Source: Octopus vulgaris (taxonomy: Eukaryota). From it: a DNA stretch of 64,000 nt. Of the stretch, positions 394 through 31,563 are shown in pieces. Position 1 is the stretch's first letter; every line of letters starts with the position of its first letter. A program made the translations under genes and the position numbers. The notes beneath the pieces are model-generated. The model searched no databases and was not told where the DNA came from. It saw only the letters and a program-made list of their open reading frames with translations. Where the stretch lies: the NCBI GenBank assembly GCA_951406725.2, contig OX597818.1, positions 120,342,001 through 120,406,000 on the forward strand, in the 5' to 3' direction.

Positions 394-416
394 TTGATGA
401 TGATGATGATGATAAT

Positions 417-472
<56 letters not shown>

Positions 473-486
473 TAATAATAATAATA
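323..486. repeat. (TAA)n/(TGA)n array, 5' flank of the R4/Dong element
   Basis: Direct reading. Confidence 0.95.
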
Positions 487-2576: not shown

Positions 2577-2607
<31 letters not shown>

Positions 2608-2611
2608 TGAT

Positions 2612-2912: not shown

Positions 2913-2927
2913 TCAATAATAATGATA

Positions 2928-3353
<426 letters not shown>

Positions 3354-3827: not shown

Positions 3828-3889
<62 letters not shown>

Positions 3890-3908
3890 TGATGATGATA
3901 ATAATAAT

Positions 3909-4443
3909 ATACCCTGATGCAGTACCAGGCAGTGGCTCTCATGGCTTCTGATCTTAACTGATTGGAAGTGTTATCATGTACATTGTTTTGTCTTGGTATA
4001 AAAGGTGGGTTACAGCAAATATTCTGCTCAATACCACAGATTTGCTTGTCAGTTGTTTGACCTTAACCAGTTGAGCTTGTCCCTTAGTGGCTGACGATAT
4101 GTGCATCTCTGACCACGAGCAGAAGTAGTGGAGGAGCATCATAGCCATGTGTTGAGAGGGATTCTTTGGGGTTTGAATAATTCACGTTCAACATCCTTAA
4201 ACAACCCTTATTCAGGGACCTTTTGAGCAGGATGGGCTACTCAACCAGAATAAAATTCTAACTGGGCCCCACCTGCAAGGTCATGTGCTGTTTATCTTGA
4301 TATGAGATCACCATATCGCGCACATATGGTTGTGATGCATGTGCCTAGTGTACTCTTATCAGACGGGTAGTCACGATGGGTATACTGGGCTTCGTATATT
4401 TTACCCCAATGTCACTTTGATGGCATGCACTGCTCTCTCACTC
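3909..4443 (+). mobile_element. ~540-bp non-coding repeat in a TAA array, copy 2
   Basis: Homologous to 3354-3827 and, inverted, to 27139-27655. Confidence 0.85.
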
Positions 4444-4615
4444 AATAATAATAATAATGGTTTCTTTATTAACCACAAGCATTTACATTACGAAAAACTT
4501 ATGGACAGCACAGGACAAAGCTATGTGTGTATGTGTGAGTGTGTTATGAGGGTTTTGCGTGTAAACAAGACTAACAAATTTTTTTTTTAAAATCAACAAT
4601 GTGTGATCCTCAAAT

Positions 4616-4652
<37 letters not shown>

Positions 4653-5386
4653 CACTCAGCTTCACTTAAAATCCGTCTTCCTTGAGAGATGTTAATATTA
4701 TTTATTTCCTATATGTAGTACTGCAACCAAGTCTAAAAATCGTACTTCAAAGCTGTAATTCATATTTAAATACTTAAATTGTAGTTTAGAAATTGTATAA
4801 ACGTGTTTTTACAAATGTTATCGGAAGTATCTAGCCAGCTAACAGCCATTTTAGCACCCACCATCTCCGTTCTTGATAGCTTTAATCTTGTCATAATGCA
4901 TCTCGCTCACTCACTCACTCACTCACTCACTCCCTCACTCACTCACTCACTCACTCACTCGTTCGCTCACATAAACACAAACACAGACACACACACACAT
5001 ACACACACACACACTCTATCTTTCTCTCTCTCACTCCTTCTTTATCTGTCTGTCTCTTTATGCATAAAGTCATCTTGCAGCCTTCTTCAATAACAGGCAA
5101 AAGCGACCTCATTATCATGGCTGATGACATAATGGGCAACATTAAGATAGCGTTTTAGTATACACAGAAACTATTATAAAGGCACACGGAAGGAAAAAGG
5201 ATCAAGGCTTTTGTAATGCAAATAGCCCAACCAGTTGCAACACTAATTTCAGAAAGTCGGCCAGCCACTCAGGCGAACATGAGCCGGATAGGATTGTTTC
5301 ACTCACACAAAATGAAATGAACTGATTGTTTTGACTAGCGGGTCTCTCTGCAGTGAATAATGTACCACTCAACATAAACATGTCTT

Positions 5387-5813
5387 GGATCTTTTCGGTT
5401 TGAACGGCAGTTTTTAACATAATTTCTAGGTAACTAAAAAATTTTAAACTTCGTATACTGGTAGAATGTGTTTATAAAACATCTTTTTCCCTTGGTTTTA
5501 TTGAGAACATTCTATAGTTTGTAAGATATTTGTTGCTTTTTTTTATTCAATTTCTGCAATTTCAACCAATCAATGATCGTCTATTGAGGTGAAAACATTC
5601 TGTGTCGTATGAATATGTCCCTCGTTTAAAAAACAAACTGGGTTTATTTACATTTCTGAAGAAAAAAAGATACCCTTCCCCCACCCCTAACCCTAACCCT
5701 AACTAACCCTAAAATAGATTGAAATGCAATAGATCGATACTAGGGTCATAATTATGGGTGACAATTTCATATGACACCGCTAGAAAAAACTGCCGTTCAA
5801 ACTGAAACGATCC
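5387..5813 (+). mobile_element. Merlin-like MITE with internal (CCCTAA)n
   Basis: TIRs GGATCTTTTCGGTTTGAACGGCAGTTTTT / AAAAAACTGCCGTTCAAACTGAAACGATCC; perfect 8-bp TSD CATGTCTT (5379-5386, 5814-5821). Confidence 0.9.
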
Positions 5814-6010
5814 CATGTCTTGCAAACAACTTGCACATGCAAGTGCTACCAGTCAAAAACTCCGCATACCGGAAGCCAGCAAGTGTATGGGGTCATCAGG
5901 AGAGAATATGCGCCGTTGCGAGGCCTACCTCTCGACGGCATCAATGCGCACCGGCCCTCCTCACTGATATGAGGCCCCGCTTACTAGATCAGCTGGTTAT
6001 CAAATAAAGC

Positions 6011-6229
6011 TCAATATTCTTCTAGCCATCGCCCATCGTCTCTTTTTAACCAAATCCAGTGGCAAGCCTTCTCCACTGTAGTTTGGATATCGGTCATAGT
6101 GGTATTGACTTTACGATGAGTTAGGCCTAAGGATAACAACAGTCGTCTCACACTGTGTCCAACGAACCCTCTACATTTATCTTCGATTGGAAAAGTTGCT
6201 ACTGAGTGAAGGCCAAACTGTCTCAGCAA
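6011..6229 (-). pseudogene. C-terminal fragment of a HERO-like REL non-LTR retrotransposon ORF
   Basis: FPIEDKCRGFVGHSVRRLLLSLG...VEKACHWIWLKR matches the recalled HERO C-terminal pattern PxEVGCRGF..AEKASxWxWxKR. Confidence 0.65.
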
Positions 6230-7106
6230 TACAAGATAATCTGAAGATGGAAAATGTAGTCGAAGGATCTTTTGGATTTCATAACTAAAACAATCCTTCG
6301 GTTAATTGGGGGTTCAAACAAATTCTAGATCAAGAAAGAAAGAACAATTAGGAACTTCTAAGCAGTACTAACATAGTACGAACCTAGGCGATAAATAAAA
6401 ATTCAAGTAAAAAGATTTGAAAACATATCACAAGTTTTAACATCACGGATTATACATATAGAATCAAGAAAAAGACTGTATAGAAGTTATATATAATCCA
6501 CGCTATCAAATAGTGAAGAATGATGAACATAGACGAAAACTCTGGCAAACTAGAATTTTTGCTCATGTCTGCATTTTTCTAGTAACTCCGTTTTTTAATT
6601 AAGGTAGACCTCTATTTTCCCAGAGTGCTTCAAAATTAGCCTTTTCTCAACAGTGCATAAAACCCTATTTTTGCTTCCGTTCTTATACGGTCTGAATTGT
6701 TCCAGTATTCTCTATTTCACACTGTGATTAAAGGACAGTACTTTCAGCGACCACATATAAAAACAGAACTTGATCGTACGGCGTCCTTTGGTATTCCTGA
6801 AGTTAGACAGATTATTAAGGTAGCGTACTTTGAATCTAACTTCAGTCATTCCTTAATATCGTTTGGTGTTGTTTTCTTGACTGGGATTTAAATACTCAAC
6901 TTCTTGGTGGATAACTACTTTGGTGTTATATGATCCGTTTAGGGTAGATAACTACTTGATAGATAACTATTTTGGTGTTATATGATCCATGCAGGGAGCA
7001 TTTAGTGATGTTTCAACATCAACAGCTTTATTCAGATGCGTTTGCGGTTCTACAAGATATACAGTTTTCTCACGTTTGAGGTGCATCTGTAACTCAACTT
7101 AAGGGT

Positions 7107-7343
7107 GTGACTGCTAAATATATTATTAGATTTCTGGTCGAGGAAGTATACCCTTCACGCATAACACCCGAGAATATATTTAAATATATAAATAGTGGAA
7201 TATCTTACCTTTTGATGAAGAAAAGAATTTTTGGCAAAGCAACCCCTTATTACAATAACGTGCTAAAGGCTAATGATTTCAAAGATAAAACAAATCATAT
7301 TCCTAACAATATAGTTAATTCTTTTTTAAAAAAGCATAAATAG
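7107..7343 (+). pseudogene. Penelope-like element RT C-terminal/linker relic
   Basis: PENIFKYINSGIS..IFGKATPYYNNVLKANDFK resembles the PLE motif HPP.I.K.I..IS..F.KA.P.Y..AL..SGF. Confidence 0.5.
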
Positions 7344-7399
7344 AAAGAGGATGCGTTATAATGGGTTAGTCCCATCTTCTGTCTCAATGTAAAGTTTAA

Positions 7400-7880
7400 A
7401 AAGTTCCTGGACTACTTGTGTTTTATAAAAAATAACTTATTTACCCAAGTTTTAACACCATTTCCTTCGAAATAGTCACCTTGCGCAGCAATACACCGGA
7501 TCCGGCGTTCCTACCATTTTTAGAATCTGACCTAGAAGTCGTTTTCCGCAAGCGTGTCGAGGACATTCTACGATTCGCTCTTGATCTCGACAACGCACTA
7601 ACGTAGAGTGTGTGCCACCCGGGGCGGCTTTTGGTTTTCCACCCCCGGACCCCACAAAAAACACATATTGCCTACAGCAGACCCAAAAGTGCCGCCCGGG
7701 GCGGACCACCCCTGCTCCAGCTACACTATTGCCACAACAGTGTTAAAATGGCGACCTTTCTGCTGCATTTTCATCTTGGGGAAGAGCTGAAAGTATGCAG
7801 TTGATAAGTCTAGCGAATAGGGTAGGTGCAAAAGCGATACCAGGATGATTTTGGCGAGAAGCTCATGCATAAGGAGAGCT
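7400..7880 (-). pseudogene. Mariner transposase 3' relic interrupted by a small MITE
   Basis: Minus translation HLPYSLDLSTAYFQLFPKMKMQQKGRHFNT [insert] VVEIKSES..KW*ERRIRCIAAQGDYFEG, a decayed YSPDLAPxD and CIxxxGDYFE. Confidence 0.8.
7596..7731. mobile_element. Small GC-rich MITE (CA...TG ends, degenerate 8-bp TSD, hAT-like)
   Basis: TIR cactaacgtag / ctacactattg; flanks cgacaacg / ccacaaca; splits the mariner frame; homolog at 56120-56272. Confidence 0.65.
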
Positions 7881-7884
7881 AACT

Positions 7885-8260
7885 GTCAGGGATGAAAAAC
7901 AAAACCCGTCAAAGGGCGGAGGAACTCTTGAGAGTCAACGGCCATCCAATAAATGTCTTAAGGCTGTATTATGCGCGGGGACATAGAAATAATCGGACTG
8001 AATACCCGGTCGCGCGGTTAAACCATTGGGAGTGAAGAACTCCTAGCCTTTGTTAGGGCATCCTTCTAGGAGAAGGTAACTGAGATAACTACGACATAAA
8101 ATCTGCGGCTCAGTGGTTACCGATGATATTGACATGTTCTTCTTTTGGGATTATGGCTGTTGTTGCTTAGTGAGTGGGATTGACTCAGTGCACAGCCTTT
8201 CCTCACTTTAAAAAAAAATCTCCTTGCACAGGCATTGTACGATAACAACATTGATTAAGC
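7885..8260 (+). mobile_element. Possible RTE-clade 5' UTR fragment
   Basis: agggcatccttctaggagaaggtaac resembles a recurrent RTE 5' UTR motif; no coding support. Confidence 0.35.
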
Positions 8261-8304
8261 TTCGTGCAATGGCCATACTCGATAACGAGCGGGCAGCCAC
8301 CATG

Positions 8305-9619
8305 TAATGTATGTATGTATGTATGTATGTATGTATGTATGTATGTATGTATGTATGTATGTATGTATGTATAAGATTACGGCCTATTGACAAGCAGTCG
8401 GTCATTTGGTTAGGGAAATAAACTAGCTAAGATAAATTTATGTAGACACGTTGCCAGCTTTCTCAGTGGAATAAGAGTTCGCCATTTTCTTTTAACTTTC
8501 GCTTCTCTCTGCGTCTACGTGTCTATATGTCGGTCAACTCTCTCTCTCTCACTCTCTCTCTCTCACCATCTCTGTCTGGCTCTCTGTCTCTTTTTCTCCA
8601 CTCTGTCTGTCTCTCTTTCTCTCTCTCTCTCTCTCCCTCCATCCACCCTCTCACTTGTACAAGTACCATTTCTGTTCACTAAGTCAGAAGACATAAAAAA
8701 GTATTTTTTTCCCAGTCTGTCCTTTTTAAAATCTTTTTATATAATATCTAACATTTTAGTGTGCATCGCTTATTCCTTTGTGGTTATTATTGCTGTTAAT
8801 GCTGTTGTAATCATTTGTGAAGGATTTAACTGCTATTTCTAGCAAGTAGACCAACGACATACAAACCCCCTCATTAACTCGTCATATTGTTAATGTTGTC
8901 TGTCAGGTTGTCTGTCTTGCCTTCTTTGTTTTCCTCTGCCTCCGCCTATTTAACTTTCCAATGTTGATGAAGATTTCACACAATCAATTTTGGTATCTTT
9001 TGTGGCAAAGCCAGATCTATCGACTGAAAATCGTTCACTCTACTTTCCAATCAATCAACATCCAGACAGAGACCACGTGGCCACAGGTGTAACTGTGTGT
9101 GTATGTGTGTGTGTGTGTGTGTGTGCGTGCGTGTGTGTGTTTGCGTGCGTTGTATGCGTGTGTCTGTGTTAGTTAAGTTTCTTAATGTGTTTGTACCCGT
9201 GCGTGTATGTCTGTGGAAATAAGAAGCGTTATACGTGGACGTACGTATTTTTCAGTCTGATAGTGAAAGTGAAAGCGAAAATAGGCCGAGAGAAGATAAA
9301 TGAATACGTGTGCTTGTTTGCAGGTGTGTGCTCATGTGTGTGTGTGTGTGTGTGTGTGTTGCGTATATGTGTGAGTGTGTGCGTATGTGCGTGTGTGTGA
9401 GAGAGAGAGAGAGTATTTCTTTATTTACTATAAGGTTGAGAAAAAGAGGGGACGATACGAGGACAGACAAAACGAACATTGGGGGTCAGGGTATCGAATG
9501 AGAGAGAGAGAGCGCATGTGTGTGTGTGTGCTTGTTTGCATGTATGTCTGTGTGCGTGTGAGCTTGTTTGCATGTGTGTGCGTGTGTGCTTGTTTGCATG
9601 TGTGCGTGTGTGTGCATGC

Positions 9620-9665
<46 letters not shown>

Positions 9666-10172
9666 TTGGAGAAAATCTGCGTGTGTATTTTCTGTATGCA
9701 AATATGCATCGACACATGCTTGCATATATATATATATATATACAGAAAGAGTGAGAGAGAGAGGGAGAGAGAAGGAGAGAGAGAAAGAAAGAGAGAGAGA
9801 GAGAAAGATGAGTGAATGCTCACATGTGGATGACGATGAATGAATGTTTCTGTGAATTTGTATATGTGTATATATATATGTATACCTGTATGTAAAGGTA
9901 GGTGTATGTATATTTGCATTATGCGTATATGTGTGCGTGCTCATGCGTGTCTATGTGTGTGTGTGTGTGCGCGCGCTACTAAGTGTGTATCCAAATGCAT
10001 ATATGTATGTATGTATGTTTGCATACAGGTGTGTATATGAATGAACAAATGGATGCATATGTGTGAGTGCATGTGTGTTGGTGTATATATGTATGCATGT
10101 AGAAACTGTTATGTCTGACTACCTTATTCGAAAGGAAGCTTTGTTATAGCAATGTTGCAGCTGCAATTGATG

Positions 10173-12366: not shown

Positions 12367-13180
12367 GATTTTCATATGATTACAGCCGTTTCGTAACGTT
12401 TTCTATGTAATAGTATTAATTTTAACATTCCATCAATATGCATATTTAGCATTATACATTAAATAAAGATGCATCGTTTAGAAAACTAACTTATCCGATT
12501 TTATATATGTCAGGATTCAATTCTGTTACACAGACAAAATCCACCCATTTCGTACACAATGTATGGAAGGCCAAAACTGGAAGTAGACTCAGTAATGTAA
12601 TTTGTAAAGGGAACCGTTTTTAGTTTGTGAATAAACTAATAAAATGTTATTTTCTAAAACATAATCCTCTTTTAAACATGTCCTATGGCCGCATTACCAG
12701 AAAAATTCAAAAGAAATTATAGATATACCTTCCATGATATATTGTATTCTGTTCGTTTGCCTAGTAAAATATATGCAATTCCTTTTGAATGCTTCTGGTA
12801 AAGTTGCTATAGGGCGTGTTTGAAAAGGGATTATTCGAGAAAAATATAATTTACAAGTATATTCACTGTTCTTGATAAAGGTTTCGTTCAGAAATCAAAT
12901 TATTGTATCTACCTCCAATTTGCGCCTTCCATAGGTTGTGTATAAAAAAAGGAGATTCTGTTTGTGTAACAGAGCTGAACCCCGAAAGCAACCATGTTGT
13001 TCCGATATGTATGATCTGATACGTTAGCTTTTTCTATAATACATCTTAATGTAATACACAATTGTCATTTATAATGCTAAATATTCATATCGATGTAAAA
13101 TATATGTATCAATTTGGAATGTTAAAATTAATAACACTACAAGAAGAATATTACGAAACGGCTGTAATCATATGAAAATC
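12367..13180. mobile_element. 814-bp foldback element (long imperfect inverted repeats, Mutator/Foldback-like)
   Basis: Terminal 30 bp GATTTTCATATGATTACAGCCGTTTCGTAA perfectly inverted at 13151-13180; inverted similarity continues inward to ~12725/12770; no TSD visible. Confidence 0.85.
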
Positions 13181-13259
13181 ACATACATACATACACACAT
13201 ACATACATACATACATACATACATACATACATACATACATACATACATACATACATGTA

Positions 13260-13630
13260 ATTGCAAGATCCAAGGAGTTAAGGGTAGGAAGTTAGTAAAC
13301 TTCGAGCAGTCTGTTGTAGGTATAAAAAACAACTTTCAGGAACAATAATAGTGCATTGACATAGAAGAATGTAAGCTTTTCCCATATCGAAGTCCGATAA
13401 GCTAATAAAAGTTTTATAGTTCACGGTTAGCATCTGAGGTTGCTATGAATGCGAATAAAAATCCAAATTGAGTGAGCAGAGCAGGTAAAATCCTGGCTAC
13501 ATATGTTTCCTAGCTTTCAGATCCTCAGAAGTAATAATTACTCAACGAGGGGGTACCCCACTACTTACTCATCAGGCCGAATATACCTTAGTCGAATGAA
13601 GGTTACATTGTCGTTAAGGAATTCCAAGTA
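13260..13630 (-). mobile_element. Penelope-pLTR-like repeat B, copy 1 (carries a hammerhead motif)
   Basis: Homologous to 20545-20875; begins next to a (CATA)n array. Confidence 0.7.
13495..13578 (-). ncRNA. Minimal type I hammerhead ribozyme motif with extended helix II
   Basis: GGC-CUGAUGA-[~60 nt with hairpins]-GAAA-CAUAUG-UA-GCC; palindromic stem III; helix II base imperfect in this copy. Confidence 0.65.
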
Positions 13631-13729
13631 AACTTGCGGAGATATAATTTAAAATGAGTGGTAAAGCCGGAAGAACGGAGTTAAAAGACAAAATAGAAAA
13701 ACACATGTTTGTTCCTGCGACTGCACTCT

Positions 13730-14095
13730 CTGATCAGATAACCTTTTCACCGACGTTGCTGCAAGACTATATTGTGAAGTTTTGGGCGCGACCACATTAC
13801 GAATGAAGTCTTTGAAAGGGTCGTCTTGAGAACTAACAGAATGCCATTGTCATGCGACACGGAAGATGCCTAGCCATATGTTACTCAAGCCGTTGCAAAG
13901 ACCAGTTAGATCCTCTTTCGAGAGGAAACCAGAAAGGGGAGGCGAAGTAGACACATCAAGATCTGAATGGGGACAGTGAAAAAGAGTCAGGCAGATGCGG
14001 ATCTTTTATGGAAGCTTGTTCATGACAGAGCTTGTGACCTTTGCTGGGTAGAGATCTCTCGTTGCTCTAATTGCCATTGGGTGTTGGAAGAACTA
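13730..14095 (+). pseudogene. Decayed RTE-like LINE 3' fragment
   Basis: TFHRRC.. and DHITNEV remnants in shifting frames. Confidence 0.45.
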
Positions 14096-14099
14096 GCAC

Positions 14100-14279
14100 A
14101 CATATGCGCGTGCACATGCGTACGCATACATACATAACAACATAATGCATATATACGTACGTACATACATACACACACATACACACACACATACATACAT
14201 ACATACATACATACATACATACATACATACATACATACATACATACATACACCAAGCATTTATATTAAGATATACATTT

Positions 14280-14326
<47 letters not shown>

Positions 14327-14830
14327 CGTACATACATACTTACATACACACACACACACACACATACATACATACATACATACATACATACATACATACA
14401 TACACACATGCATACATACGTACATGCATGCATGCATACATACATACATACATACATACACCAGGCATTCATATTCAGATATACATTTACACATACACAC
14501 ACACATACACATATACATATACACATATATATACACACACACATTATACACCCACATATATACATTTACACATATCTCCAGACAACAAAGATGACATTGA
14601 CAACGAAGACTTAAATTCATTCATTCTCCTCACTCCTGCCATTTTCTTTCCTTTTCTTAGCTCACACATTCACTCATTCATTCACTACTCTATTCATTCA
14701 TTCACTCATTCACTCACTCAGAAACACATTCATTAACTCACTCACTCATTCATTCACTCACTCACTCACTCACTCACTCACTCACTCACTCACTCACTCA
14801 CTCACTCACTCACTCACTCACTCACTCACT
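14100..14830. repeat. (CATA)n/(CA)n/(TA)n/(CACT)n field with a local duplication (14241 and 14461 units)
   Basis: Direct reading. Confidence 0.9.
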
Positions 14831-15244
14831 CTCATCTGTTCTGTTATATATTCTGTCTCTCATTCATTTCTCTCAAATCCTCATTCAGTTGTTATAGTCG
14901 TATCATCATTTTCAGTCATTCTTAGTTATTCTTATACATTTCTTTATTCTTATTCGTTTACTCATAAACTCATTCTATCCTTCATTCGTTCGCTCACTCA
15001 TTCACTCACACACTCTCTCTCTCTCTCTCCCTCTTTCATCTCTGCGTCCCTCAGATTATTTACTCATTCAATCATTTCACTACTCAATCGTTTAACCATT
15101 ATTTATTCAACCACACATTCTTATTCTCAATGAATCTCTCAGAAATTCAATGAGCCCTTCATTCCTTTACTCACCCTCTCAACTACACACTCGTCTAGCC
15201 ACATCATGAAATCCAACTCATATTTCATATAACTAACACATACA

Positions 15245-15735
15245 ACCCACCACAAGGTCCAGCCCTTGCTGAGGTGTCGTAGCTGGTGTACCTCAATGAC
15301 CCCCGAGTGTTATGCCAGTGAAGTGCAAAATCCTTGTAAGGCCTACCATACTGAACAAGTCAAAGGATAGAAGCCAGACTAATATGAGCCGCCTCTTCCC
15401 ATGGGTAAAAATGGATTTGCAAAGGATCAACGACCCCACCTACTAAAAAACAAAGTTACAAAAGCATCTATGATAACTCATAACCAGCAAGACGGGGAAG
15501 AGAAAGGCTTTCCCACACGTACACGTCAGGCTCTGGCCTGGAACCCAGGAGGGAGGCGGGAGAGAGAGAGAGTTCTCTAAAAATAGCAGGAAGCGAGTTA
15601 ATGAGGCAGAGCTGAAAAACGGGTATCCATCTGGAGAGAAGCAAGAAAGACATCTCAGAATCAAGAACAGTAAGGAAAAGTCGCAGATAGCCTATACTCC
15701 ATAAGGAACGAAGGACTTCGGTAAAGTAGCTAGTT
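15245..15735 (+). mobile_element. Internally deleted non-autonomous RTE (5' UTR fused to ORF end)
   Basis: 5' part cctcaatgacccc..caagtcaaaggatagaagccagactaa resembles an RTE 5' UTR; 3' part encodes TRQALAWNPGGRRER..NEAELK, typical of an RTE C-terminus. Confidence 0.6.
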
Positions 15736-16230
15736 AATACATATCACAGACGGATTTTTTTTAAGAATCAGATTATAAGCCAGTCCTTAAAAGAATATTG
15801 ATTTTGATTTCCATTAAACAAACTTTGTAGTACTTCAGGTACAATAAAAATCTACCATTACCATCTATCCTGCGTGGTTTTCTAATGTCATCCTAATTCA
15901 AACTCTCGGACTCTTTAAGATCAGTTCATACTGTTGAAAATGTTGGACCAAGCGCTGGTCAAGAGAAAAATCTACTCTTCCATGCTTGTTTTGTTAACAG
16001 GAATCGTCTGCTTGCTCTTGAGGTATCAGTAGTGAGTATATCCAAGAAAGCGATCACAACTGGATAGTTAATGGCTCGAACCCCTTGAAACAATTCCGGA
16101 ATCTGAATCATTAGCTAGCGCAAACTCTCGCATTCTTCCTTAATTCGGAACTGCTGCTCTTCTACACTCGAATGTTTCAGGTCACGAGTGGCCCAACTGG
16201 GAATGCTGCTCCACTTATGACATACCAAAG

Positions 16231-16790
16231 TAGTACTTACTTACTTGTACTTGTGGCGACATTCACCCTGGGCGGGTTGAGTCGGCTTCTTCTACCACCC
16301 TCGAGGCATCTCGAACCATGGCAGCCCACGCACGACGGTCCTGCGCCAGTTCACTGGAAAAAGCGAGCCAGTCACGGTTCCATCGGCGCAGGCCGACCAC
16401 CTGCGGACCCGTGAGCACGGAGAGGTCCTCCTTGATCGTCGTAGCCCAGGTCTTCAGCTGCCCGCCCGCGCATTTCCGCCAGTTGGGAACTGGAGTTGGG
16501 AGAAGGACATCACGGCTCAGTTAACCCACCGGACGCCTACATGCATGGCCAAACCACCGCAAGCGCCCTGCAGAAGGACAGATAGAAGGGGCTGAAGAGA
16601 CAGGCGAAGTCGGAGATTGGCGGTAGAAACTCGATCCACCCGACGGCAGCGAAGAATGCACCGGAGGCAGTCATTGTCGAAGACTTCCAGCCTTCGTTGA
16701 TCGACCACCCGCATAGGCCACGTTTCACAGTCATAGAGAAGTACTGTACGAATGACGGCCTGATATATTCGCCCTTTGGTCACCGATGTG
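16231..16790 (-). mobile_element. 5'-truncated RTE-clade LINE 3' end
   Basis: KGRIYQAVIRTVLLYDCETW..LEVFDNDCLRCIL..RRLRWFGH..GGQLKTW..LAQDRRAW; short tandem-repeat tail caagta/agta at 16231-16253. Confidence 0.88.
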
Positions 16791-17084
16791 ACCAAAGTAG
16801 TGGTTACAGATAATCTCAAGATCTTGGTTTCATCTTTTTCTCTCTTTACAATAAAAGTCTAAAAAGAAACAAAACATGACTGTATACAAAATCAGTAACA
16901 ATAAAACACTGAATTCATTAATTATACCAACATAGATAGCTCCCAACTCAAAGCAAAATTCAACCATTGTATCTTTTTTTAGCCCTAGGACTAGTGTGGA
17001 CAGTCACCTGGTTTCCAAGGTGTATAAGTAACCGAGATCGCAACATTTCCCTTGAACGGAATGCTGGTCCGTTGCAGTGTTTAA

Positions 17085-17281
17085 GACGAGCAGTTTGAGG
17101 AGAGGGGACTAGTCGATTACATCACCTCCGGTACTTGACTGGTACTTTACTTTATCGACCTTGAAAGGACGAACGGCAAAGTTGACCATGGCGATATTTG
17201 AACTAAGAGCGTAAAGAATCAGAAGAAATGCTACTAAGCATTTTGTCCAAAGTGTCATCGATTCCGTCAGCTTGCCGCCTT
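17085..17281 (-). mobile_element. SINE family 1, diverged copy
   Basis: Homology to 103-322. Confidence 0.75.
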
Positions 17282-17769
17282 AACCACTACATCTGAGTAA
17301 CTGGAAATTTTTTCTGTCTTTTCCTCTTTCATACTTCAATTTCAATTCTATTTTCGACAATCCACCAATCTTAAAAACTCACTTCTCCAGCTTCTTCCGA
17401 AGTAGGCCAGTGACGCCAGTTCTGTCTTATCGCTCTTTCTGCGTCATGTGACAGTCAAATTCCGCCTCCACAACGAATACTGGAATTTAAAGTAAGGACA
17501 ACAGAACTCTAGTATCTACTCTTAGAGATCAGTTTACTCTTTACTAAGCTCAAGTAACACGCAGACACGTCGGTGGATTGCTCCCATATGTGATATGTGA
17601 GACAATGCATGCTGCTAACTGCTGCATATACAAACACTCTAAACTGCATAAACAAAGAGGCAGTCTAGCTGATTCAGTAAAAATTTATTCACCAGCACAT
17701 TATGACTGGCTTTCTTAGAAAGATTATGAGATTGATTCACTGCTTACTGCGCTATCGAACCAGCGAAGA

Positions 17770-18112
17770 AGCCACTACTTAGTCGCTGTACCTGTTAGAA
17801 ACAGCCGCCATAACTTCTTCATAGAATTAAATATTTTTTTTTTAATGAAACACTTGTTTAACTGTCTTTTTAAAGAGGTCACATTAGATAATGTATTCCT
17901 ACATACACTGTGTTGAAAAAATTGGGAAGGTCACGGCAGAGCGCCTTTGATCATAGGTTTAACCGATCAATAAACTTTTTTTAAAGGTCACATTGAAAGT
18001 ATATACTCCCGGTTACACTGTGTTCTAAAAGAATCGGGATGGCCATGTTTAAGCACCGTTGATTTAAGGTTTAATGAATCAGAGCTGGCCTAAAACTAAA
18101 CAACACCAACAA
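17770..18112 (+). repeat. Old ~220-bp interspersed repeat ending in (CAA)n (representative, partly duplicated)
   Basis: Pattern ctgctagaaatagcagccaaat..cacattggataat..tttgatcatagg..ctaaacaacaac recurs near 19100, 38150, 41700, 48200, 52900, 54840, 58790 and 63480. Confidence 0.65.
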
Positions 18113-19322
18113 TTCATTTTTTTTTTCAGATATAGCATACGTAAGACCATTCTCTCCCGTTTGTCTTCCAGTTTTATATATAAACGACAATATATAACGA
18201 TTGAATTACGATTTGACTTATATTTCTCGCAGGTCTGGTGACTACATAGAGATTTCCTCTTTGACTATTCTCTCCCAAACTTTTCTTTCTGAGTTACCAA
18301 CAGAAGTTCGAAATAAGCATCAGCCTCATCAACCCTGTCAACACAGGTCGTGGTTACGAAGATCATGAGTTTTGTCACCTCGTCCTCTGCTTGATTAATA
18401 TATATACGTAATAGTATATATATGTAATCGACTTAATACCAATGTCTGTCCTTGTTTGTCCCCTCTATGTTTAGCCCCTTGTGGGTAGTAAAGAAATATA
18501 AATATACGTAATAGTGCTAAAAACACAGAATATCTCAGCAGTAGACAAAAATCGTCCACATAGAAAACCAAAATACTAGGAACTAGCACTGTGTACTGTG
18601 GGCGATCTAGTCGACTGGCCACCTCCCCGAAAATTTCGGGCATTGTGCCTAGAGTAGAAAAGAATGTTATATTCTTTGTTGATAACATTCCTTCTTAGGC
18701 CCCTAATTTTTCCAAACAAACTATAAAGCGCACAAAATAGTTTAATTCCCAACCACAAGATCACTTTACAACGTAGCAAAACACTGAAAATATTACCTCA
18801 GCATGCGAGAGGCACTGCATATTGCTGCAGAAAGTCTAATTCTTATAGGTCTTCACACCGTATGTATAATGACCTTAACTCCTTGACACACCTATGAAAC
18901 CCTCCTTAGAGCAATATCTCTCTCGCTCATGTCCAGACAAATCTTAAACAAAAATACAAAATTACTTGCTGCGTCAATAATCTCATTAGCTTAAACCCTG
19001 TGATGAGACTCTAGTAACAAGTGCAGATAAACAGTTACTACTATGCACCGACTTAGTCTTCTAAGTCTAGTAGTTCTGGCCCTCAGCAGAAACCTAGTGA
19101 TCTTCTATATGGTTACTCGATCTGCTAAAATTAGCAGCCAGATCTCAACCGAACTACATTCACTCTACTATTTGAAAATAAAGAATGCACAGGACAGACG
19201 GAGTCGTAGATAACTATGCCTGAATAAAATACCGAATGACCACAGCTAGAATACTTTTGGTCAGAAGTATTATCAATGAGAATGATACTAATATTAAACA
19301 ACAACAGCATCAATAACAACAA

Positions 19323-19353
<31 letters not shown>

Positions 19354-19689
19354 AACAACAACAGTAACCACAACTACACTAACTAATAACGAACCATTAA
19401 AGAGGCACTTTAGAAACAATAGCGAGATTTCCTGTTAGAAACAATAGCCAAATTTCCGTCAAAATAGACCACATCGAGAAAAATATGAAATGGACATCAA
19501 AAAACGAATTTGAAAATGAAACCGAAACTGACTGCATTGCGGACCGCTGCAAAATCAGGTCATCCGTTTTATAGTTTCAGTATTAAAGTGAAAGTATCTG
19601 ACATTACAATAGAGAGATGTTATTGTTTCCCTTTTGACACGTAATACTGATATAGTGGAGAAGATATGATATTGCTGTGGGCTCGCACT

Positions 19690-19830
19690 AGGCAAGAAGT
19701 TAGAACTTTTTTGGCCTATGACACTACATGGACCCTAAGTAAGGCATGTGTAAAATTTGAATTAAATTGGTTGTGTAGTTCTCAAGTTTTAGGTATTCAT
19801 ACAGACACACATTCTCATCTTTATATATAG
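19690..19830 (-). mobile_element. Probable non-autonomous Helitron 5' end
   Basis: Minus strand starts TCTATATATAAAGATGAGAATGTGTGTCTGT, the same style as 53781-54146; no CTAG 3' end found. Confidence 0.4.
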
Positions 19831-20105
19831 ATAGATAGATATAGATGTAGATAAATATGTAAATATATACATACATATATGTACATACCTACATATATAT
19901 GTATATATACATGCATATATGGATACAGGACATTAAAAAAATGTTGAACACAATGAGAAACGAAAAGTTCAAAACAAAAACATAGAAAACGAACTTTTTT
20001 TCGAACAACGAAAAAAAACGGAGAAACGAGACATGCAACATAAAGAATATTCCCCTTCATCAGTTGTCTCTGTTTCATCTACTCTGCGTTTCGAAAGTAA
20101 TACAT

Positions 20106-20194
<89 letters not shown>

Positions 20195-20400
20195 AATTAG
20201 GGTATCTACGAGATACCACCATGCTGAAAATAGCAGCCATGATCTGACTTTAAAACCACCTTAATTGTCCATATATCAACACAGAGAGAAAACAAAGAGA
20301 CAAGATGAAACTAGCAAAAAATTACTGGATAATTCTAGATCCAGATTTCTGACTTTGCATTTATGAATGCTTTGCCTCGTCAGTAGAATACACACAGAAG
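20195..20400 (-). mobile_element. Penelope-pLTR-like repeat A, copy 1
   Basis: Inverted homolog of 21400-21610; contains a hammerhead motif. Confidence 0.75.
20332..20389 (-). ncRNA. Minimal type I hammerhead ribozyme motif
   Basis: AUUCUA-CUGACGA-GGC AAA GCAUU CAUA AAUGC AAA GUC-A-GAAA-UCUGGA-UC-UAGAAU: 6-bp stem I, intact CUGANGA/GAAA/UH core, one extra A before GAAA. Confidence 0.75.
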
Positions 20401-20454
20401 AGAAACGTAAACACTTGATAAATCGTTATTTTATTTTTAAATTAACAATCTTAT

Positions 20455-20506
<52 letters not shown>

Positions 20507-20544
20507 CACATACATAAACACACACGTGTGTGTGTGTACAAGTG

Positions 20545-20955
20545 AGATCCAAGGATCAAGGTATAGGCAGCTAGTGCGCTTCGGGCAATCCGTAGAAGAA
20601 ATAAATTTTTGGGCGGAGAATGTTGTGAGTTTTCCCCGTAACGAAGTACGATAAGCTGAAAAAGTTAATTTCATAGTTCACGGTTAGCAACAGAAGTTGT
20701 ATATGCGAATAATCATCTAAAAATTAGGGAATGGAGTAGATAAAATCCAGGCTACAAATGTTTCATAGCTAGTGGAACCTCGGAGGTAGTAAATTATCCA
20801 AACGAGGGGCAAGCTACTCATCAGACCAAAGTTACCTTGATTATAGGAAGTTTACATCGCTGCTAGGAGATCCCGTGTTAACTCGTTGGGGATTCGATCG
20901 AAATGAAACATATGTATCCTGGATTTTATCTACTCCATTCCCAAATATTTTGGTT
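20545..20955 (-). mobile_element. Penelope-pLTR-like repeat B, copy 2, with a partial inverted copy at 20905-20955
   Basis: Homologous to 13260-13630; gaaacatatgtatcctggattttatctactccattccc is the inverse of 20727-20764. Confidence 0.7.
20750..20827 (-). ncRNA. Minimal type I hammerhead ribozyme motif with extended helix II
   Basis: GGU-CUGAUGA-GUAGC..CCUCG..CGAGG..GCUAU-GAAA-CAUUUG-UA-GCC. Confidence 0.7.
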
Positions 20956-20962
20956 ATATATA

Positions 20963-20990
20963 TCTCTTATATAAAACCCGTTCTGTGTGT

Positions 20991-21034
<44 letters not shown>

Positions 21035-21200
21035 CTACTAGCATCTCGGGCATTCTCCATCCGATTGCGCTCAATTTTGGTATGTAGATACCGACGGTAT
21101 CAGGGCGTGTATAAGCCTTGAAAAAAATTACAAAAATCGATTCCAGGTGAGAATGCGATCGATAAAGCCATGAGAAATCGTTTTTCTTTGGAATAGAGAA
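20963..21200 (+). mobile_element. Probable non-autonomous Helitron 5' portion
   Basis: TCTCTTATATAAAA, then (GT)n, then ccgattgcgctcaattttggtatgtag; 3' end not found. Confidence 0.4.
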
Positions 21201-21399: not shown

Positions 21400-21610
21400 C
21401 TGACATACTCAATTGACGAAGGCAGAGCTTATTTGAAGCAAAGTCAGAAATCCAGGATCTTGAATTATCCAGTAAAATGTTTTTTACTAGTTTATTTTGT
21501 CTCTCTGTCTTATCTCATGGCGCGATATGAATATTTAAGGTGGTTTTTAGGATCAGGGTTCTGACTGCTATTTCGGCATGGTGGTATCTATCAGATACCC
21601 TTATTTGTAG
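21400..21610 (+). mobile_element. Penelope-pLTR-like repeat A, copy 2, with a degenerate hammerhead at 21407-21465
   Basis: UCAA-UUGACGA-A-GGC..GCUU..AAGC..GUC-A-GAAA-UCCAGGA-UC-UUGA; C3 mutated to U. Confidence 0.7.
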
Positions 21611-21775
21611 TTATATATATATGTGTATATATATATATACAGATCTCAGAATTAAACAGCCGAAATCTGCGATGAGGAATCGGTTTCTGACTGAAGAACG
21701 AAGGCTTTGAATGACCCGTCTGTCTCTTATGTTCGCCCCTTCGTGTATTTCACGTTATTTATATATGTAAAGGTT

Positions 21776-22428: not shown

Positions 22429-22848
22429 GGGTCTTTTCGGTTTGACCGGCAGTTTTTTTTAATAATTTCCTCGTAACTAAAAACTTTTAAACTTCGTATA
22501 CTGGTAGAATGTGTTTATAAAACATCTTTTTCTCTTGACTTTATTGAGGAAATTCTATAGTTTGTAAGATATTTGTTGTTTTTTTCTTCTTCAATTTCTG
22601 CAATTTCAACCAATCAATGACGTCTATTGAGGTAAAAAAGCATTCTGTGCCGTATGAATATGTCCCTCGTTTAAGAAACAGATTGGGTTTATTTACATTT
22701 CTGAAGAAAAAAAGATACCCTTCCCCCACCCCCAACCCTAACCCTAAAACAGATTGAAATGTAATAGATCGATACTAAGGTCATAATTATGGGTGACAAT
22801 TTCATATGACACCGCTAGAAAAAACTGCCGGTCAAACCGAAAAGATCC
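22429..22848 (+). mobile_element. Merlin-like MITE
   Basis: Same TIRs and body as 5387-5813; degenerate TSD TGAGAATG/TCGGAATG. Confidence 0.88.
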
Positions 22849-23104
22849 TCGGAATGAACTGAAACAAACTATTTTCTCATAAACCACAAACATAAAATAT
22901 AAAATTTTTACAATAGCTATTTTTGTACCATACTTAATGTAGATACACCACTGAAAGGCAAATAACTGCGGTATTCGTCCGGAGAAACTATCATACAAAA
23001 AAACAACAGCAGCAGACGAAATTAGTCAAGTAACGGTGGCGAAAATTCTAGATGTTCATTTCTGTTGATTCTGGCCGCTTGCCGCCTTCTCAAACCCAAA
23101 TAAT

Positions 23105-23270: not shown

Positions 23271-23611
23271 TTTCACACAAATAATAAGAATAAGTCATCA
23301 GGTGCCATTTTAAAATTTGCAGCTGTTCTAGATTCTACTCAAAAGTCAATTGTTATAAAATGCAATAAATAATAAAGATGTTGACACTTAAATTGATTCA
23401 GGAAGTATAGAATATTGTATTCACACATCTTTTGCTATTAAATGAAGTTGGCTATTAAATCTACTTGTATAGTTATTACGACTTCTTCGACATAGAAGAA
23501 AGTAATTAGAGGTTTACAATGTGATATTATTCTCAAGACAAAATGTATTAGAATATCAAACTTTCAATGGTAGGCGATCTTTGAACAAGTCTGATTTAAA
23601 TTTTAGATCTT

Positions 23612-24043
23612 GGATCTTTTCGGTTTGAACGGCAGGCAGTTTTTAAAATAATTTCCACGTAACTAAAAACTTTTAAACTTCGTATACTGGTAAAATGTGT
23701 TTATAAAACATCTTTTTCTCTTGGCTTTATTGAGAAAACTCTATAGTTTGTAAGATATTTGTTGTTTTTTTTTCTTCAATTTCTGCAATTTCAACCAATC
23801 AATGACGTCTATTGAGGTGAAAACATTCTGTGCCGTATGAATATGTCCCTCGTTTAAGAAACAGATTGGGTTTATTTACATTTCTGAAGAAAAAAAAGAT
23901 ACCCTTCCCCCCACCCCTAACTCTAACTAACCCTAACGCTAAAACAGATTGAAATGCAATAGATCGATACTAGGGTCATAATTATGGGTGACAATTTCAT
24001 ATGACACCGCTAGAAAAAACTGCCGTTCAAACCGAAAAGATCC
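23612..24043 (+). mobile_element. Merlin-like MITE
   Basis: TIRs as above; TSD TAGATCTT/TAGATATT. Confidence 0.9.
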
Positions 24044-24360
24044 TAGATATTAAATACAATGGTATTTTAGATGCCGTCTCAATCTGTGGCTTAACAACTA
24101 TGTTTATAAGCTCGATTCAAATTTTTTAAGTTTTGATATTCAGAAAGGGATAAACAATGCAAAGATGCGTAGCACCCTCTGGATGGCCGTTAATACAAAC
24201 GCGGTAACTATATTATCACAATGTGATGCAGGACTAGAAATTTTAATTTGAAATCGAGGTATGTGAAAAATTTACGTGTTCACATACAATATATATATTT
24301 AGTTTAGATTCTGTTTTCGTCATCTATGGTGAAGTTCTTACAATTGCTAGTTAGTGGTAG

Positions 24361-26936: not shown

Positions 26937-27138
26937 GTTAGCGCGTCGGACAAAATGCTTAGCAACATTTCTTCCGGCGCATTATGTTCTGGTCCCATGC
27001 CACCGAGATTGGCTTTGCCTTTCATCTTTCCGGAGTCGATTAAATAAGTGCCAATTGAGTACGGGGAAAAAGGGTGAGGGTGTAAACGACTAATCCCATT
27101 CCCCAAACTTTATGGCCAAGATTATTATTATTATTATT

Positions 27139-27654
27139 GATTGAGAGAGCAGCGCATACCATCAAGTTGATACTGGGTACAAATATACGAAGCTCAATAA
27201 ACCCATCGTGATGGCCCATCTGATAAGGGTACACCAGGCCCATCCATCACAACCATATGTGTGCGACATGGTGATCTCATATCAAGACAAACAAAGCATG
27301 ACCTTGCAGGTAGGGCCTAGTTGGAATTTTCTTCATGTCGAGTAGCCTATCTCGCTCAACAAGTCCCTGAATAGGGGTTGTTTAAGGACGATGAACGAAA
27401 CATTCGTTGTTTCCAAATGTGAATTATTCAAACCCCAAAGATTTCCTCTCAACACATGGCTACTCCTGCTCGTGATCAGAGATACACATATCGTCAGCAA
27501 CTCAGGGACATGCTCAGCTGGTTAAGGTCAAACAAGCAAGTTGAATATTTACTGTTGCTCATCTTTTACACTAAGACAAAACATAAACATGTTAACACCT
27601 CCAATCATTTAAGATCTGAAGCGATAAGATCCACTGTTCACACTGAATTAGTGC

Positions 27655-27655
<1 letters not shown>
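27139..27655 (-). mobile_element. ~540-bp TAA-array repeat, diverged copy 3
   Basis: Inverted homolog of 3909-4443, flanked by (ATT)n on both sides. Confidence 0.8.
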
Positions 27656-27726
<71 letters not shown>

Positions 27727-27740
27727 CATCATCATCATCA

Positions 27741-27803: not shown

Positions 27804-28715
27804 TAACTTAGGTTTTGATGGAACTTCTGGAGTCTTCCCATTTCCTTTATATTTATCTCTATACCTTCTCTCAATATTTCCCCCAAGGCCCCAACAATAA
27901 TCGGCACTATCTTTTTATCCTCCAGAGTCTGGCTATCTCGTATTTAAGAGGATTGTATACGTCTATTTTTTTTGCCTTCCTTCTTAACTATTTGTGGGTC
28001 AAATGGGCTTACAACGCCAGTTATGTGATCTACCTTGTCCAGCATCACTAGGTCCGGCTTGCTGTGCTCAAGGACCTAGGCTGTTAGAAGTGGGAAATTC
28101 AACAGGATTTTGCAAGTTTCCGACTCAGCCACTCCTTGTTGTTTGTTTTGTACCACGTTTCGCCTCTCTCTAACCCCCGTTTTTCACACAGATTTCAATG
28201 CAGCACTTTTGCTACCTTATCGTGTTGACACAAATTATTCTGATTTTGATCAAGTCGAGGCCATCCATTTACAATATGAGCAATAGTTTCGTCAAATCCA
28301 TTGTAAATTCTGCACAATGGAGACACTTGCTCATTTCTAAGGATGAGCCTCCAATTTGTGGCAAAAGCTTGACCTTGCGCTGCAAGTATAGTGATTTCAC
28401 TCTCGTTTTTACGTGCTCCTTTCTTTAACCAGCCTTGAGTAACTTCAGCTGGGGCTACATGGAACTGATTATGTAATCTCTTGTTTTGTAGTCGTTGAGT
28501 AGTGCTTCTTCATGTCATTCTTCTGCTTCTTGTTTTGTTCTTTTCTTTTTTCCTGCTTTCAATATGTCCCCATCTCTAATTGTCACTAGCAAGATTTCTT
28601 CACTTTGGGTTAGATACCTCAGTATGTTCCTCTATTCAACAAGCACGCAGTCTTTCACACTTATCAGTCCGCTTCTTCCATTTGTACTTTTCGTGTATTG
28701 ACGATCAAATGTTTG
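27804..28715 (-). mobile_element. Old R4/Dong-like relic (third family)
   Basis: Minus translation DRQYTKSTNGRSGLISVKDCV, CRIYNGFDETIAHIVNG, HDKVAKVLH, KPDLV, VPIIVGALG; ends in a (TAA)n array. Confidence 0.78.
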
Positions 28716-31563
28716 CACGCAGATCGAGTTGTTAATACAGAAGGCATTAACAGGCACCATCATTAATAACAAATGGTGGTACGCCATAAAAAGAGCCATC
28801 GAATATGAGTCTATTAGGTTTAGCATAAGTTTTGCTAAGAAGGGATGTAGAATAGGAGATGGTTTAGTTAAGGAACTAGAAGAAGCCTGGAGAACTGGTA
28901 ATGCGGACCAAGCGAGGGTGAAAAGACTGGAGTTAAACCAGCATCTTGAAGTCCAACACATGGGAAGTATTGCCAGATCTAAGTTACGTGCATTGGGAAG
29001 TGAAGCAATCACAGCCGTGGGATGGGCCCGAGTGGTGGAAGCTCAACAAGGAAATAGTTCCACTATTTGGTCTTTGACGAATCAAAATGGTGTCTTGGTA
29101 AACGAACCCTAGAAAATGTGTGAGGCCTTTCGGGAGTACTTCGCCCAGCTGTTCGGGGGTGGCGGCGGTCCTGATGGTGGGAGAGCCCTCGAGAACTTTC
29201 TTGCCGAACTGCCGTGTCTCTCGGGGTCTTGCGAAGGGCCAATCACGCCTGTGAAGGTGATGGAGGCTTTGGCCGACTGTAAAGCGGGTAAGTCGCTGGG
29301 ACTTGATGGTCTTCTGTACGAGCTGTATAAATGTATGCCAGACTTGTTCGGACATCTACTGGCTGACGTGTACGCGAACTGGCAACAAAATGGGTCTATC
29401 CCCAGATCTGTGCGCCGACGAATAGTGACGTTGATCAGAAAGGATCCGAACAAGGGGGACGTTATAGAGCGTTTCAGGCCCATCACTCTGTTAAACGCAG
29501 AAGTGAAGATTTTGGTCAAAGTTTTAGCAAAAAGGTTAGTGCGTGTCGCGAATGGTATAGTCGGGGAGGCAAAGACATGTACCATCCAAGGCAGAACCAT
29601 TCAGGATACCCTCCACCTTATTCGCTATACCATAGAGAGGGTTGGTAATAAATTTGGCAAAGGTGGGGCATTGGTACATTTGGACCAGTCTGAAGCTTTT
29701 GATAGGGTCGACCATCGATGCCTGGCAACTGTGCTTTACCAGTTCTCCAGGATTTTTCTAGTTCCTTAACTGTGCTTGCGCGATTCGGCCTGGGCCTTGG
29801 CTTCCTCAGGTGGTTTATCGCTCTGTACTACAACATTGACTCGATACTTCGGGTGAACGGTTCCGTTCGTCAAGGATATCCACTCTCACCACTTTTGTAT
29901 GTGGTGGCTCTCGAGCTCCTACTGCGAAGGTTGAGTGACATCCCGAGAGAACCAGGTCTGGAGGAGTTTGTTACGGCTTACGTGGATGATATCACTATCA
30001 GCGTAACCTCAGTAGCACGCCTACGTAAAGTGGGTAAGACTATTGAGGTTTACGAGATGGTGGCAGGAGCAAAGATTAACCGGGAAAAATCGGTCGGCTT
30101 GCAGCTCGGCACCTGGGTTGGTAAGTCGATAACTTGAGACAGCGTTGTTGGGCGCTGGACGGAAGGACCGGTTAAGTTGGCGGGAGTTTGGTTCGGACCA
30201 GGCCTCCAGGTAGAGAAAAACTGGGTGGAGGTATTGAGCAGGGTGGCTGCAGTAGTCAAGACCTGGTCTTGGCGGTGGCTATCTCTGAAAGGGAGGGTGG
30301 AGGTGACCAATGTATTTATCGCATCGGTCATTACCTACCGCCTGACCATCGTGCCCTGTCCGGAATCGTGGGTGATCAGGGTGCAGAGACAGCTCTTTAG
30401 CTTTTTGAGGAAGGGCAGGTCGCCACTTGTGAAACGCTTTGTTTGCTGTCAAAAGCCTTTAAAGGGAGGTTTAGGGATGCTTTGGTTAATATTGCGCAGG
30501 CATGCGTTGAGGTTGGGGCACCTCTGGATTCTCCTGGATAGTGAACGGGTGTGGTCTCCGCTGGCCAGACATGTTCCCCGAGTTCAAAAGTTTTTGCAAA
30601 TAGGAAGCCTGGTGTTCTCGTAGACCGAGGTCGAGTGAATGGCATAAAGAGTGCCGTAAGGCCCTCTTACTATTCCGGCGCTCGGTCAACGCCAACGGTG
30701 GGGATTCCACACGGATTTTATATAGTGGGTTGGTAGAGTCTGAATGCGACAATGGCCTAGGAGCGACTCTAGGTCTCGTGTTTATTCAACTAGACAGCCT
30801 GTTTCACCGTACATTCGGGTTCAGAACTTTGGATAACTTCCAAAAGTCCTTGGCCTGGCAATGCTACAGAGGTGCCTTGCCCGTTTGGGATAAGCTCGCA
30901 AGACACGGTAAGCGTCAGTCGCCGACCTGTCCAAGATACGGGGGAGACAGAGAAACCGTCCCTCACGCTGTGTCCGGAGATATCTGAAATGTGGGCTTAT
31001 GCTGAACACCTGTTGTCCGGCGAAGGAAGATTTCAGCTGTCGACTGAGTCAATCATAAAAATTGACCCACCGGGAGTTTTAACAAACGAAGGTAAGAATT
31101 GTTTTCTCACGGTTGTAGCAATAGCGAAAGAGGCAGTGTGGAAGACTAGGATAAAAGGGATTAAGACTGGCAACTTTATCTCTGGCCACAATTTACGATC
31201 ATTTTTTACTTTTTATTTGAAAAGGAAGGTGTGGCTGGAGAAGAGGTGTCTGTCGGAGTGTACGTTCTAAAAGAGATGGAAGCATGCTGCACGAGTGTTG
31301 TGCGTGCAAGGAGCCGTGTGAATAGATGGAAAAAAGAGCAAAAAAAAAAAAGGTACCAGTGATAGATCGGGGCTTGTGGGGTCAGAGCGTGGCCTGATCA
31401 TCGCTTCATTTGTATTGTCTCTGTATTGTTAATTTCATTCGATTTTTTAATATTTTATTTAATTTTTAAAGTCACATTATATGTAAAACCATATCGCATT
31501 ACTGATCCCATCAATTGTTCTGTCCATTTCTATGTTTAGCCCCCGGTGGGCAATAAAGAAATT
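28716..31563 (+). mobile_element. 5'-truncated, inactive Tx1/L1-clade LINE ORF2 plus 3' UTR
   Basis: GKSLGLDGLLYELY, FRPITLLNAEVKILVKVL, LDQSEAFDRVDH, VRQGYPLSPLLY, AYVDDI, GAKINREKS, LSLKGR, GGLGM, CPRYGGDRETVPH; multiple stops and frameshifts; tail ..gtgggcaataaagaaatt. Confidence 0.9.

Follow-up and report, generated by a model that had tools for sequence, protein, structure and literature searches.

A type I hammerhead motif with a long predicted helix II in a high-copy repeat of Octopus vulgaris, likely the 3′ terminal repeat of a Penelope-like element

The sequence analysed here is a 64,000-nucleotide stretch of the Octopus vulgaris genome (assembly GCA_951406725.2, contig OX597818.1, positions 120,342,001 to 120,406,000 of the forward strand), called the window below and numbered from its first letter. 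It is microsatellite-rich animal DNA (68 tandem-repeat rows, GC content of 31-46%), with repeats that presumably resemble those of octopus genomes, and carries two minus-strand copies of a repeat, A and B, and a short inverted piece beside copy B, all listed in Table 1. BLAST finds 72% identity between the copies (13370-13608 versus 20624-20857), and alignment extends the likeness over ~350-380 bp (about 13262-13641 and 20541-20895). The DNA between them holds a fragment of a long interspersed nuclear element (LINE), which we take to be RTE-like, together with other dispersed repeats and microsatellites, and no open reading frame (ORF) of a Penelope-like element (PLE). The original prediction, made from the letters of the window alone, described two diverged minus-strand repeat copies with a hammerhead core, and these were recovered with 11 of 11 core bases and the identity given above. 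The span that it proposed, 13495-20827, has both motifs inside but is only an envelope around them. That A and B could be the paired terminal repeats of one element was rejected in view of the missing PLE ORF between them and of their level of identity.

Table 1. Copies of the repeat and parts of the hammerhead motif in the window
Feature	Position	Strand	Details
Copy A of the repeat, 5′-truncated	13262..13641	-	3′ end enters (TGTA)n microsatellite 13181-13256
Hammerhead motif A	13483..13588	-	CUGAUGA 13575-13569, G10.1 at 13568, GAAA 13509-13506; helix III ACAUAUGU; triplet GUA ends at 13498, predicted cut after A13498; stem I GGC/GCC
Helix II of A, 59 nt	13510..13568	-	G10.1-G11.1 mismatch, basal stem broken; inner stems CCUCG/UGAGG and GAGUAA/UUACUU retained
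Copy B of the repeat	20541..20895	-	3′ end enters CA/TG/TA microsatellite 20458-20540
Hammerhead motif B	20738..20837	-	CUGAUGA 20824-20818, GAAA 20764-20761; helix III ACAUUUGU; triplet GUA ends at 20753, predicted cut after A20753; stem I GGU/GCC
Helix II of B, 53 nt	20765..20817	-	6-bp basal stem closed by G10.1-U11.1
Inverted 5′-truncated partial copy	20903..20954	+	GAAA, palindromic helix III, GUA, 38 nt past cut

Judged by its sequence, the motif in copies A and B is a type I hammerhead motif of hammerhead descent. The invariant type I core (CUGANGA, GAAA and UH, in this order) is complete in both copies, and it is fully identical between them whereas their ungapped flanks are 69% identical (p ~0.017). 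The proposal that the flanks diverge more than the core is correct to this extent, but one block of the repeat (13437-13413 of the minus strand, matching 20665-20690) is identical at 19 of 20 positions, as conserved as the core, which is consequently not the sole conserved block. This block lies 60-85 nt downstream of the cut, near a secondary peak of sequencing depth (20650-20679), and is a candidate protein-binding site or signal for initiation by reverse transcriptase (RT).

Stem I, proposed as GG(C/U)/GCC, has 3 bp in both copies and can be extended through bulges to 12 bp in A and 11 bp in B in a constrained fold with the core held open, while helix III has 2 bp. In A and in the partial copy helix III is an 8-nt palindrome, whose self-duplex is predicted at -7.0 kcal/mol compared to +2.4 kcal/mol for the monomer hairpin. 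Its suitability for dimeric cleavage, put forward in the original prediction, agrees with these energies and with public sequencing runs (see below), where the palindromic base accounts for 91-94% of the depth at the position mutated in B in all four runs compared (93% in run X1).

A strict form of the motif has two instances in the window, whereas shuffled windows average 0.005 and 0 of 200 shuffles had two; because the motif was defined after being seen and the copies are homologous, the two motifs count as one event. A further control was provided by 142 exact core matches, 37 from metagenome contigs and 105 from prokaryotic genome contigs (with full flanks for 80 of the 105), which served only to estimate chance. 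One of them has a stem I of at least 3 bp and seven have a stem II of at least 4 bp, but none (0/142) combines the two, whereas copy B has 3 and 6 bp. Copy A fails the stem II threshold because of its mismatch at 10.1-11.1.

Helix II is the unusual part of the motif. Its purine-pyrimidine base at 10.1-11.1 is present in B, as a G-U pair at the foot of a 6-bp stem, and not in A, where two G residues face each other. The proposed length of 55-60 nt holds for A and is slightly missed by B, whose 5′ arm is ~6-7 nt shorter than that of A and of most relatives. In both copies helix II folds as a single interrupted hairpin containing a CCUCG/YGAGG stem with a pair probability of 0.79-0.99, which bears out the internal CCUC/GAGG hairpin of the original prediction and led us to reject the branched form of helix II that it considered. 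The arm typical of the family is seen in contigs whose sequence departs from copy B behind 20792 (88 in run X1, 64 in X7 and 73 in X17): examined by eye, the consensus of these loose ends offers an 11-bp perfect complement to the 3′ arm of B (with base 20773 as in the majority) and, after it, a 5-nt bulge, a CCUCG/CGAGG stem and a tip of 4-6 bp. A second subfamily has a different 5′ arm, and its partner arm was not found on the same molecule. A 6-bp side hairpin drawn by eye in the loose-end consensus was discarded, since only 4 of its 6 pairs can form in the second subfamily. For the family, helix II is predicted to form one hairpin of ~60 nt without branches, three to four times as long as usual; helix II is typically of 4-5 bp and called "long" at 6-8 bp (PMC13725137; PMC4209133). 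The added length most likely serves as a handle for protein binding or is a peripheral extension that the motif tolerates, and it leaves the catalytic core unaltered. A comparable tolerance has been described for helix I of the Clec2 hammerhead, which accommodates 150-1,500 nt (PMC6155905).

The ends of the repeat are informative about its mode of insertion. Copies A and B share a 3′ end situated 210-240 nt past the cut, with the common sequence CCUUGGAUCU, and then run into differing microsatellites. The partial copy stands head to head with copy B (92% identity over 48 bp by BLAST), starts at GAAA and is adjoined at its 3′ terminus by a short (TA)n tract (20955-20963), so that all three pieces have a microsatellite at their 3′ end. 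The original prediction of a third half-copy in this place is borne out by the retained palindrome, although the piece lies on the plus strand, is inverted relative to B and has U rather than G after the cut. No inverted partner was found at copy A, in contrast to copy B. Within the window A and B are otherwise solitary, and the only partner is inverted, not in tandem.

Public sequencing data show that the repeat extends well beyond this locus. From 24 runs listed, 20 contain part of copy B, and four were compared with copy B at 80% likeness. Runs X1 (organism A), X7 (organism B) and X17 (organism D), which are DNA or of unknown kind, have 1,487, 1,712 and 1,233 contigs on copy B, respectively; the contigs are consensus pieces rather than molecules, and such numbers identify the repeat as a high-copy family. 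The fourth run, X21 (organism A), whose RNA status is a guess, has 112. Summed depth, which does not equal copy number, peaks in X1 at ~92,000 over 20740-20754 and is 86,000 over 20755-20769, compared to 400-9,700 over 20530-20724 and ~740-860 over 20815-20859 (single listed contigs have 29-88), with a fourfold drop near 20722-20726. Variation was followed across the four runs in the best-supported 40 of 83 variant rows. Among these, N7 (20820), the sole free position of the core, varies (18-43% in the three deeper runs), and stem I base 1.1 (20825) changes from U to C, which turns a G-U into a G-C pair and keeps the pairing. Only one of the 40 falls within 20728-20772 (p ~0.014 if placed at random), and it restores the palindrome. 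In the loose ends of the contigs, one common core is followed by at least three types of downstream flank, and in X17 a consensus of 19 loose ends reproduces the terminus of the partial copy followed by (TA)n.

Neither database nor literature searches recovered the family. Rfam yields no hammerhead for the window at E<=1, where its 86 matches are to other families, nor for the separate copies at E<=10; the copies resemble the Rfam hammerhead clan, to which RF00163 Hammerhead_1 presumably belongs, in core consensus and three-helix topology, and differ from it in giving no match at any score tested. The long helix II is probably responsible. The spacer allowed in the core search of Craig et al. 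(PMC8557442) is 7-17 nt, so that a helix II region of 53-59 nt is missed, in agreement with the original view that standard length-limited searches overlook such a motif. Scans with the exact motif did not retrieve relatives: none of the 142 metagenome and genome-contig matches resembles the copies, a further scan of metagenome contigs had 0 matches, and two scans of viral contigs gave 0 matches and three matches devoid of the upstream core half. No account of this repeat family was found in the literature, subscription papers and Repbase being outside the search.

We consider it fairly likely that A, B and the inverted piece are decayed, 5′-truncated members of a high-copy family that represents a PLE 3′ terminal repeat with a type I hammerhead motif of long helix II. 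The link to PLEs is drawn indirectly, as no PLE ORF was found nearby. It is based on the short solitary copies, the microsatellite ends and the inverted 5′ partner, which fit PLE 3′ ends. PLE insertions are described as 5′-truncated and as targeting (TA)n, with an inverted 5′-truncated copy adjacent and a hammerhead close to the 3′ end (Craig et al., PMC8557442); the repeat agrees with this anatomy, in particular in the inverted 5′-truncated copy adjoining the 5′ end (20903-20954, by copy B) and in the insertion in microsatellites such as (TA)n. The PLE motif table of the same study has the same core layout and a short palindromic helix III, with a G-U base of helix II in Penelope-13_HM and Penelope-17_HM. 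PLE hammerheads are mostly solitary remnants, work as dimers and cleave weakly (Cervera and de la Peña, PMC4209133). The copies in the window are probably inactive fossils.

Several observations weigh against this assignment. Beside neither copy did we find an ORF for a PLE RT or GIY-YIG nuclease (12 of the 97 listed ORFs, around and between the copies, were scanned against Pfam, with no matches), although this is as expected for 5′-truncated insertions. The two 3′ termini of the family lie ~170-200 nt apart, to be compared with a PLE tail of 30-40 bp. None of the octopus PLE sequences in the available portion of the Craig et al. supplement corresponds to the family; identity with Naiad_Obim, Naiad_Ovul, Naiad_Omin and Hydra-1_oBim was rejected since the motifs are absent from the supplement text, where line breaks could hide a match. 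The motif itself is imperfect in both copies, with a G-G mismatch at 10.1-11.1 in A and, in loop III of B, a private change at 20757 that breaks the palindrome and weakens the self-duplex to -2.9 kcal/mol. The hammerhead is not the minimum-energy fold of either copy (penalties of 3.9 kcal/mol in A and 10.3 kcal/mol in B), and the fold z-scores are unremarkable (+0.61 and -0.73). The peak of depth over the 3′ core half can reflect conservation across subfamilies or, less favourably, many short insertions that end near 20722-20726. Depth over the 5′ core half (20815-20829) is low (742 in X1), which leaves the conservation of this half in the family poorly sampled. The invariant core positions are absent from the best 40 of the 83 variant rows, which on its own is weak (p ~0.23).

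Other origins of the repeat have to be weighed against a PLE terminus. The ~350-bp non-coding unit could be a non-LTR (long terminal repeat) retrozyme, whose tandem-array transcripts are cut by the hammerhead to monomers, circularised and reinserted by enzymes borrowed from PLEs or LINEs. Metazoan retrozymes are repeats of 150-450 bp (350-390 bp in mussel; PMC7229834), and the repeat resembles them in unit size, lack of an ORF, type I core, 2-bp helix III with a tetraloop and an extendable bulged stem I; the contigs of the guessed RNA run X21 on copy B point the same way. Yet both copies are solitary and microsatellite-ended, their sole partner is inverted rather than in tandem, no head-to-tail return was found among the 15 of 103 joints listed, and retrozyme hammerheads have a canonical short helix II, all of which makes this origin distinctly unlikely. 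The fixed 3′ end followed by simple repeats, the LINE RT ORFs within the window and the second conserved block downstream (13437-13413) would also suit a short interspersed element (SINE)-like repeat with its own promoter head, comparable to Schistosoma Sm-alpha, moved by RTE or other LINEs and carrying the hammerhead as an internal passenger. We hold this to be improbable: the tails differ (TGTA versus CA/TG/TA), which looks like insertion into pre-existing microsatellites, the inverted 5′ partner ending in (TA)n belongs to the features of PLEs, and self-BLAST revealed no likeness to the LINE ends of the window.

A different question is whether the motif ever mattered for spreading. The ribozyme might long since have lost its activity to the long helix II, or the match to the core might be a coincidence, the repeat spreading regardless of cleavage. 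Copies A and B are indeed decayed and misfold, PLE insertion in vitro does not need hammerhead cleavage and is unimpaired by hammerhead mutants (PMC11167929), Naiad PLEs thrive without canonical hammerheads, eight of them having only half cores 35-50 nt apart (PMC8557442), and extra base pairs in stem II lowered the activity of a pseudoknotted hammerhead (PMC3088659). Such indifference is nevertheless very unlikely, as the core, stem I, the helix III palindrome and basal helix II are kept together across differently flanked subfamilies, variation falls on N7 and on a pair-preserving stem I base, and none of the 142 chance matches reaches this combination of stems.

If the repeat is a PLE terminus, an active ancestor may have worked as follows. 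Transcripts through tandem copies would bring two motifs together, whose 8-nt palindromes would pair in a stable helix III, and the RNA would cut itself after GUA, probably slowly or with the help of the element's protein, as for the Anolis PLE. For the latter, Frangieh et al. (PMC11167929) reported cleavage only with PLE protein and two internal RT start sites. RT and GIY-YIG nuclease would be supplied by a full-length copy elsewhere, the RNA would be copied from one of two 3′ start points, ~38 nt and ~210-240 nt past the cut, and copying into TA-rich microsatellites would leave short and inverted insertions. A bolder version, which we regard as rather unlikely, has helices I and II both lengthened by about one helical turn in an active hammerhead subtype, where the 5-nt bulge after a basal helix II of 11-12 bp would dock on the distal part of helix I, or the tip of helix II would bind the PLE protein and gate cleavage. 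Were this true, thousands of motifs would have remained unseen in this lineage, as descriptors cap helix II.

Among known systems, the motif comes close in layout to the type I hammerheads of metazoan PLEs (PMC4209133; Hydra-clade and others in PMC8557442), with which it shares the CUGANGA and GAAA core, the short palindromic helix III, the position near the 3′ end, (TA)n-type ends, the inverted 5′-truncated partner and, with some of them, the G-U base of helix II. It differs in helix II, published as 3-8 bp with a 3-10-nt loop against 53-59 nt here, with a putative 11-12-bp basal stem and two further stems in the family, in the predicted extension of stem I to 11-12 bp, and in the lack of an identified parent ORF. 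Nor is it the same as Hydra-1_oBim or the Naiad_Ovul half core, as far as these appear in the published material. Calling it a distinct structural subtype, as originally suggested, goes too far, since there is a precedent in PLE-X1_sMoe of spike moss, whose stem II has 9 bp and carries a 35-nt loop (~53 nt; Craig et al., File S2, PMC8557442). PLE-X1_sMoe and PLE-X1_sTam, marked there as deviating from the canonical structure, are plant elements that are endonuclease-deficient, target ribosomal DNA and have a deviant helix III and cleavage site; in contrast, the present motif is canonical in the rest of its core and belongs to an animal repeat dispersed in high copy number. Metazoan non-LTR retrozymes (PMC7229834) are alike in their ~350-bp non-coding unit and single type I hammerhead with a weak helix III, but are arranged head to tail in tandem and have a short, canonical helix II, while the present copies are solitary or inverted. 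In the available part of the main text of PMC13282606 hammerheads are unmentioned.

Hammerheads at PLE ends are well known; what is added is a high-copy animal family with a helix II three to four times the usual length. As it is missed by Rfam and by published length-limited descriptors, hammerhead censuses undercount. A long helix II may also explain some of the PLE families reported to have only half cores, separated by 35-50 nt. Should young copies prove able to cleave, the family would provide a natural series for testing what PLE hammerheads need (dimers, protein help, long-range contacts).

Two further hammerhead-like sequences were noticed close to copy B. An inverted pair (20161-20390, minus strand, and 21406-21639, plus strand; 78% identity), unrelated to the repeat, surrounds copy B, and each arm ends in (TA)n. 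It features a CUGACGA core at 20383, a stem I of 6 bp in which the arms differ by one compensatory change, a palindromic helix III and an AUC triplet; in the right arm C3 is mutated. This PLE-like inverted insertion appears to be older, with copy B nested inside it. At 20000-20080 (minus strand), CUGAUGA at 20063 stands in an 11-bp stem I-like helix with a short helix II but lacking GAAA; it may represent a third hammerhead family, minimal and degenerate.

The remaining features of the window are other repeats. A ~810-bp element that forms an inverted repeat of itself (12367-13180; 64% over its whole length and more towards the ends), with only the microsatellite between it and copy A, is a miniature inverted-repeat transposable element-like or hairpin insertion. 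Directly after the inverted piece follows a short element with internal (TG)n (20960-21190), presumably akin to Helitron/HINE-type elements. A ~430-bp element with terminal inverted repeats and internal CCCTAA repeats is present six times (5383-5813, 22429-22849, 23600-24049, 48268-48685, 52450-52667 and 59155-59491; 85-93% identity); its CUGAAGA...GAAA failed the hammerhead helix scan. A ~600-bp repeat flanked by (AAT)n forms a tandem pair (3227-3842 and 3831-4458) and recurs inverted at 27121-27735 (77-84% identity). Broken ORFs of non-LTR retrotransposons, with RVT_1 and zf-RVT matches, are found at 674-2209 and 28195-31270, and one RT of the window has matches only to generic metazoan or unnamed proteins. 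A weak match to U2 small nuclear RNA at 56986-57123 on the minus strand (33.8 bits against a gathering score of 46) is a probable U2 pseudogene or U2-derived repeat.

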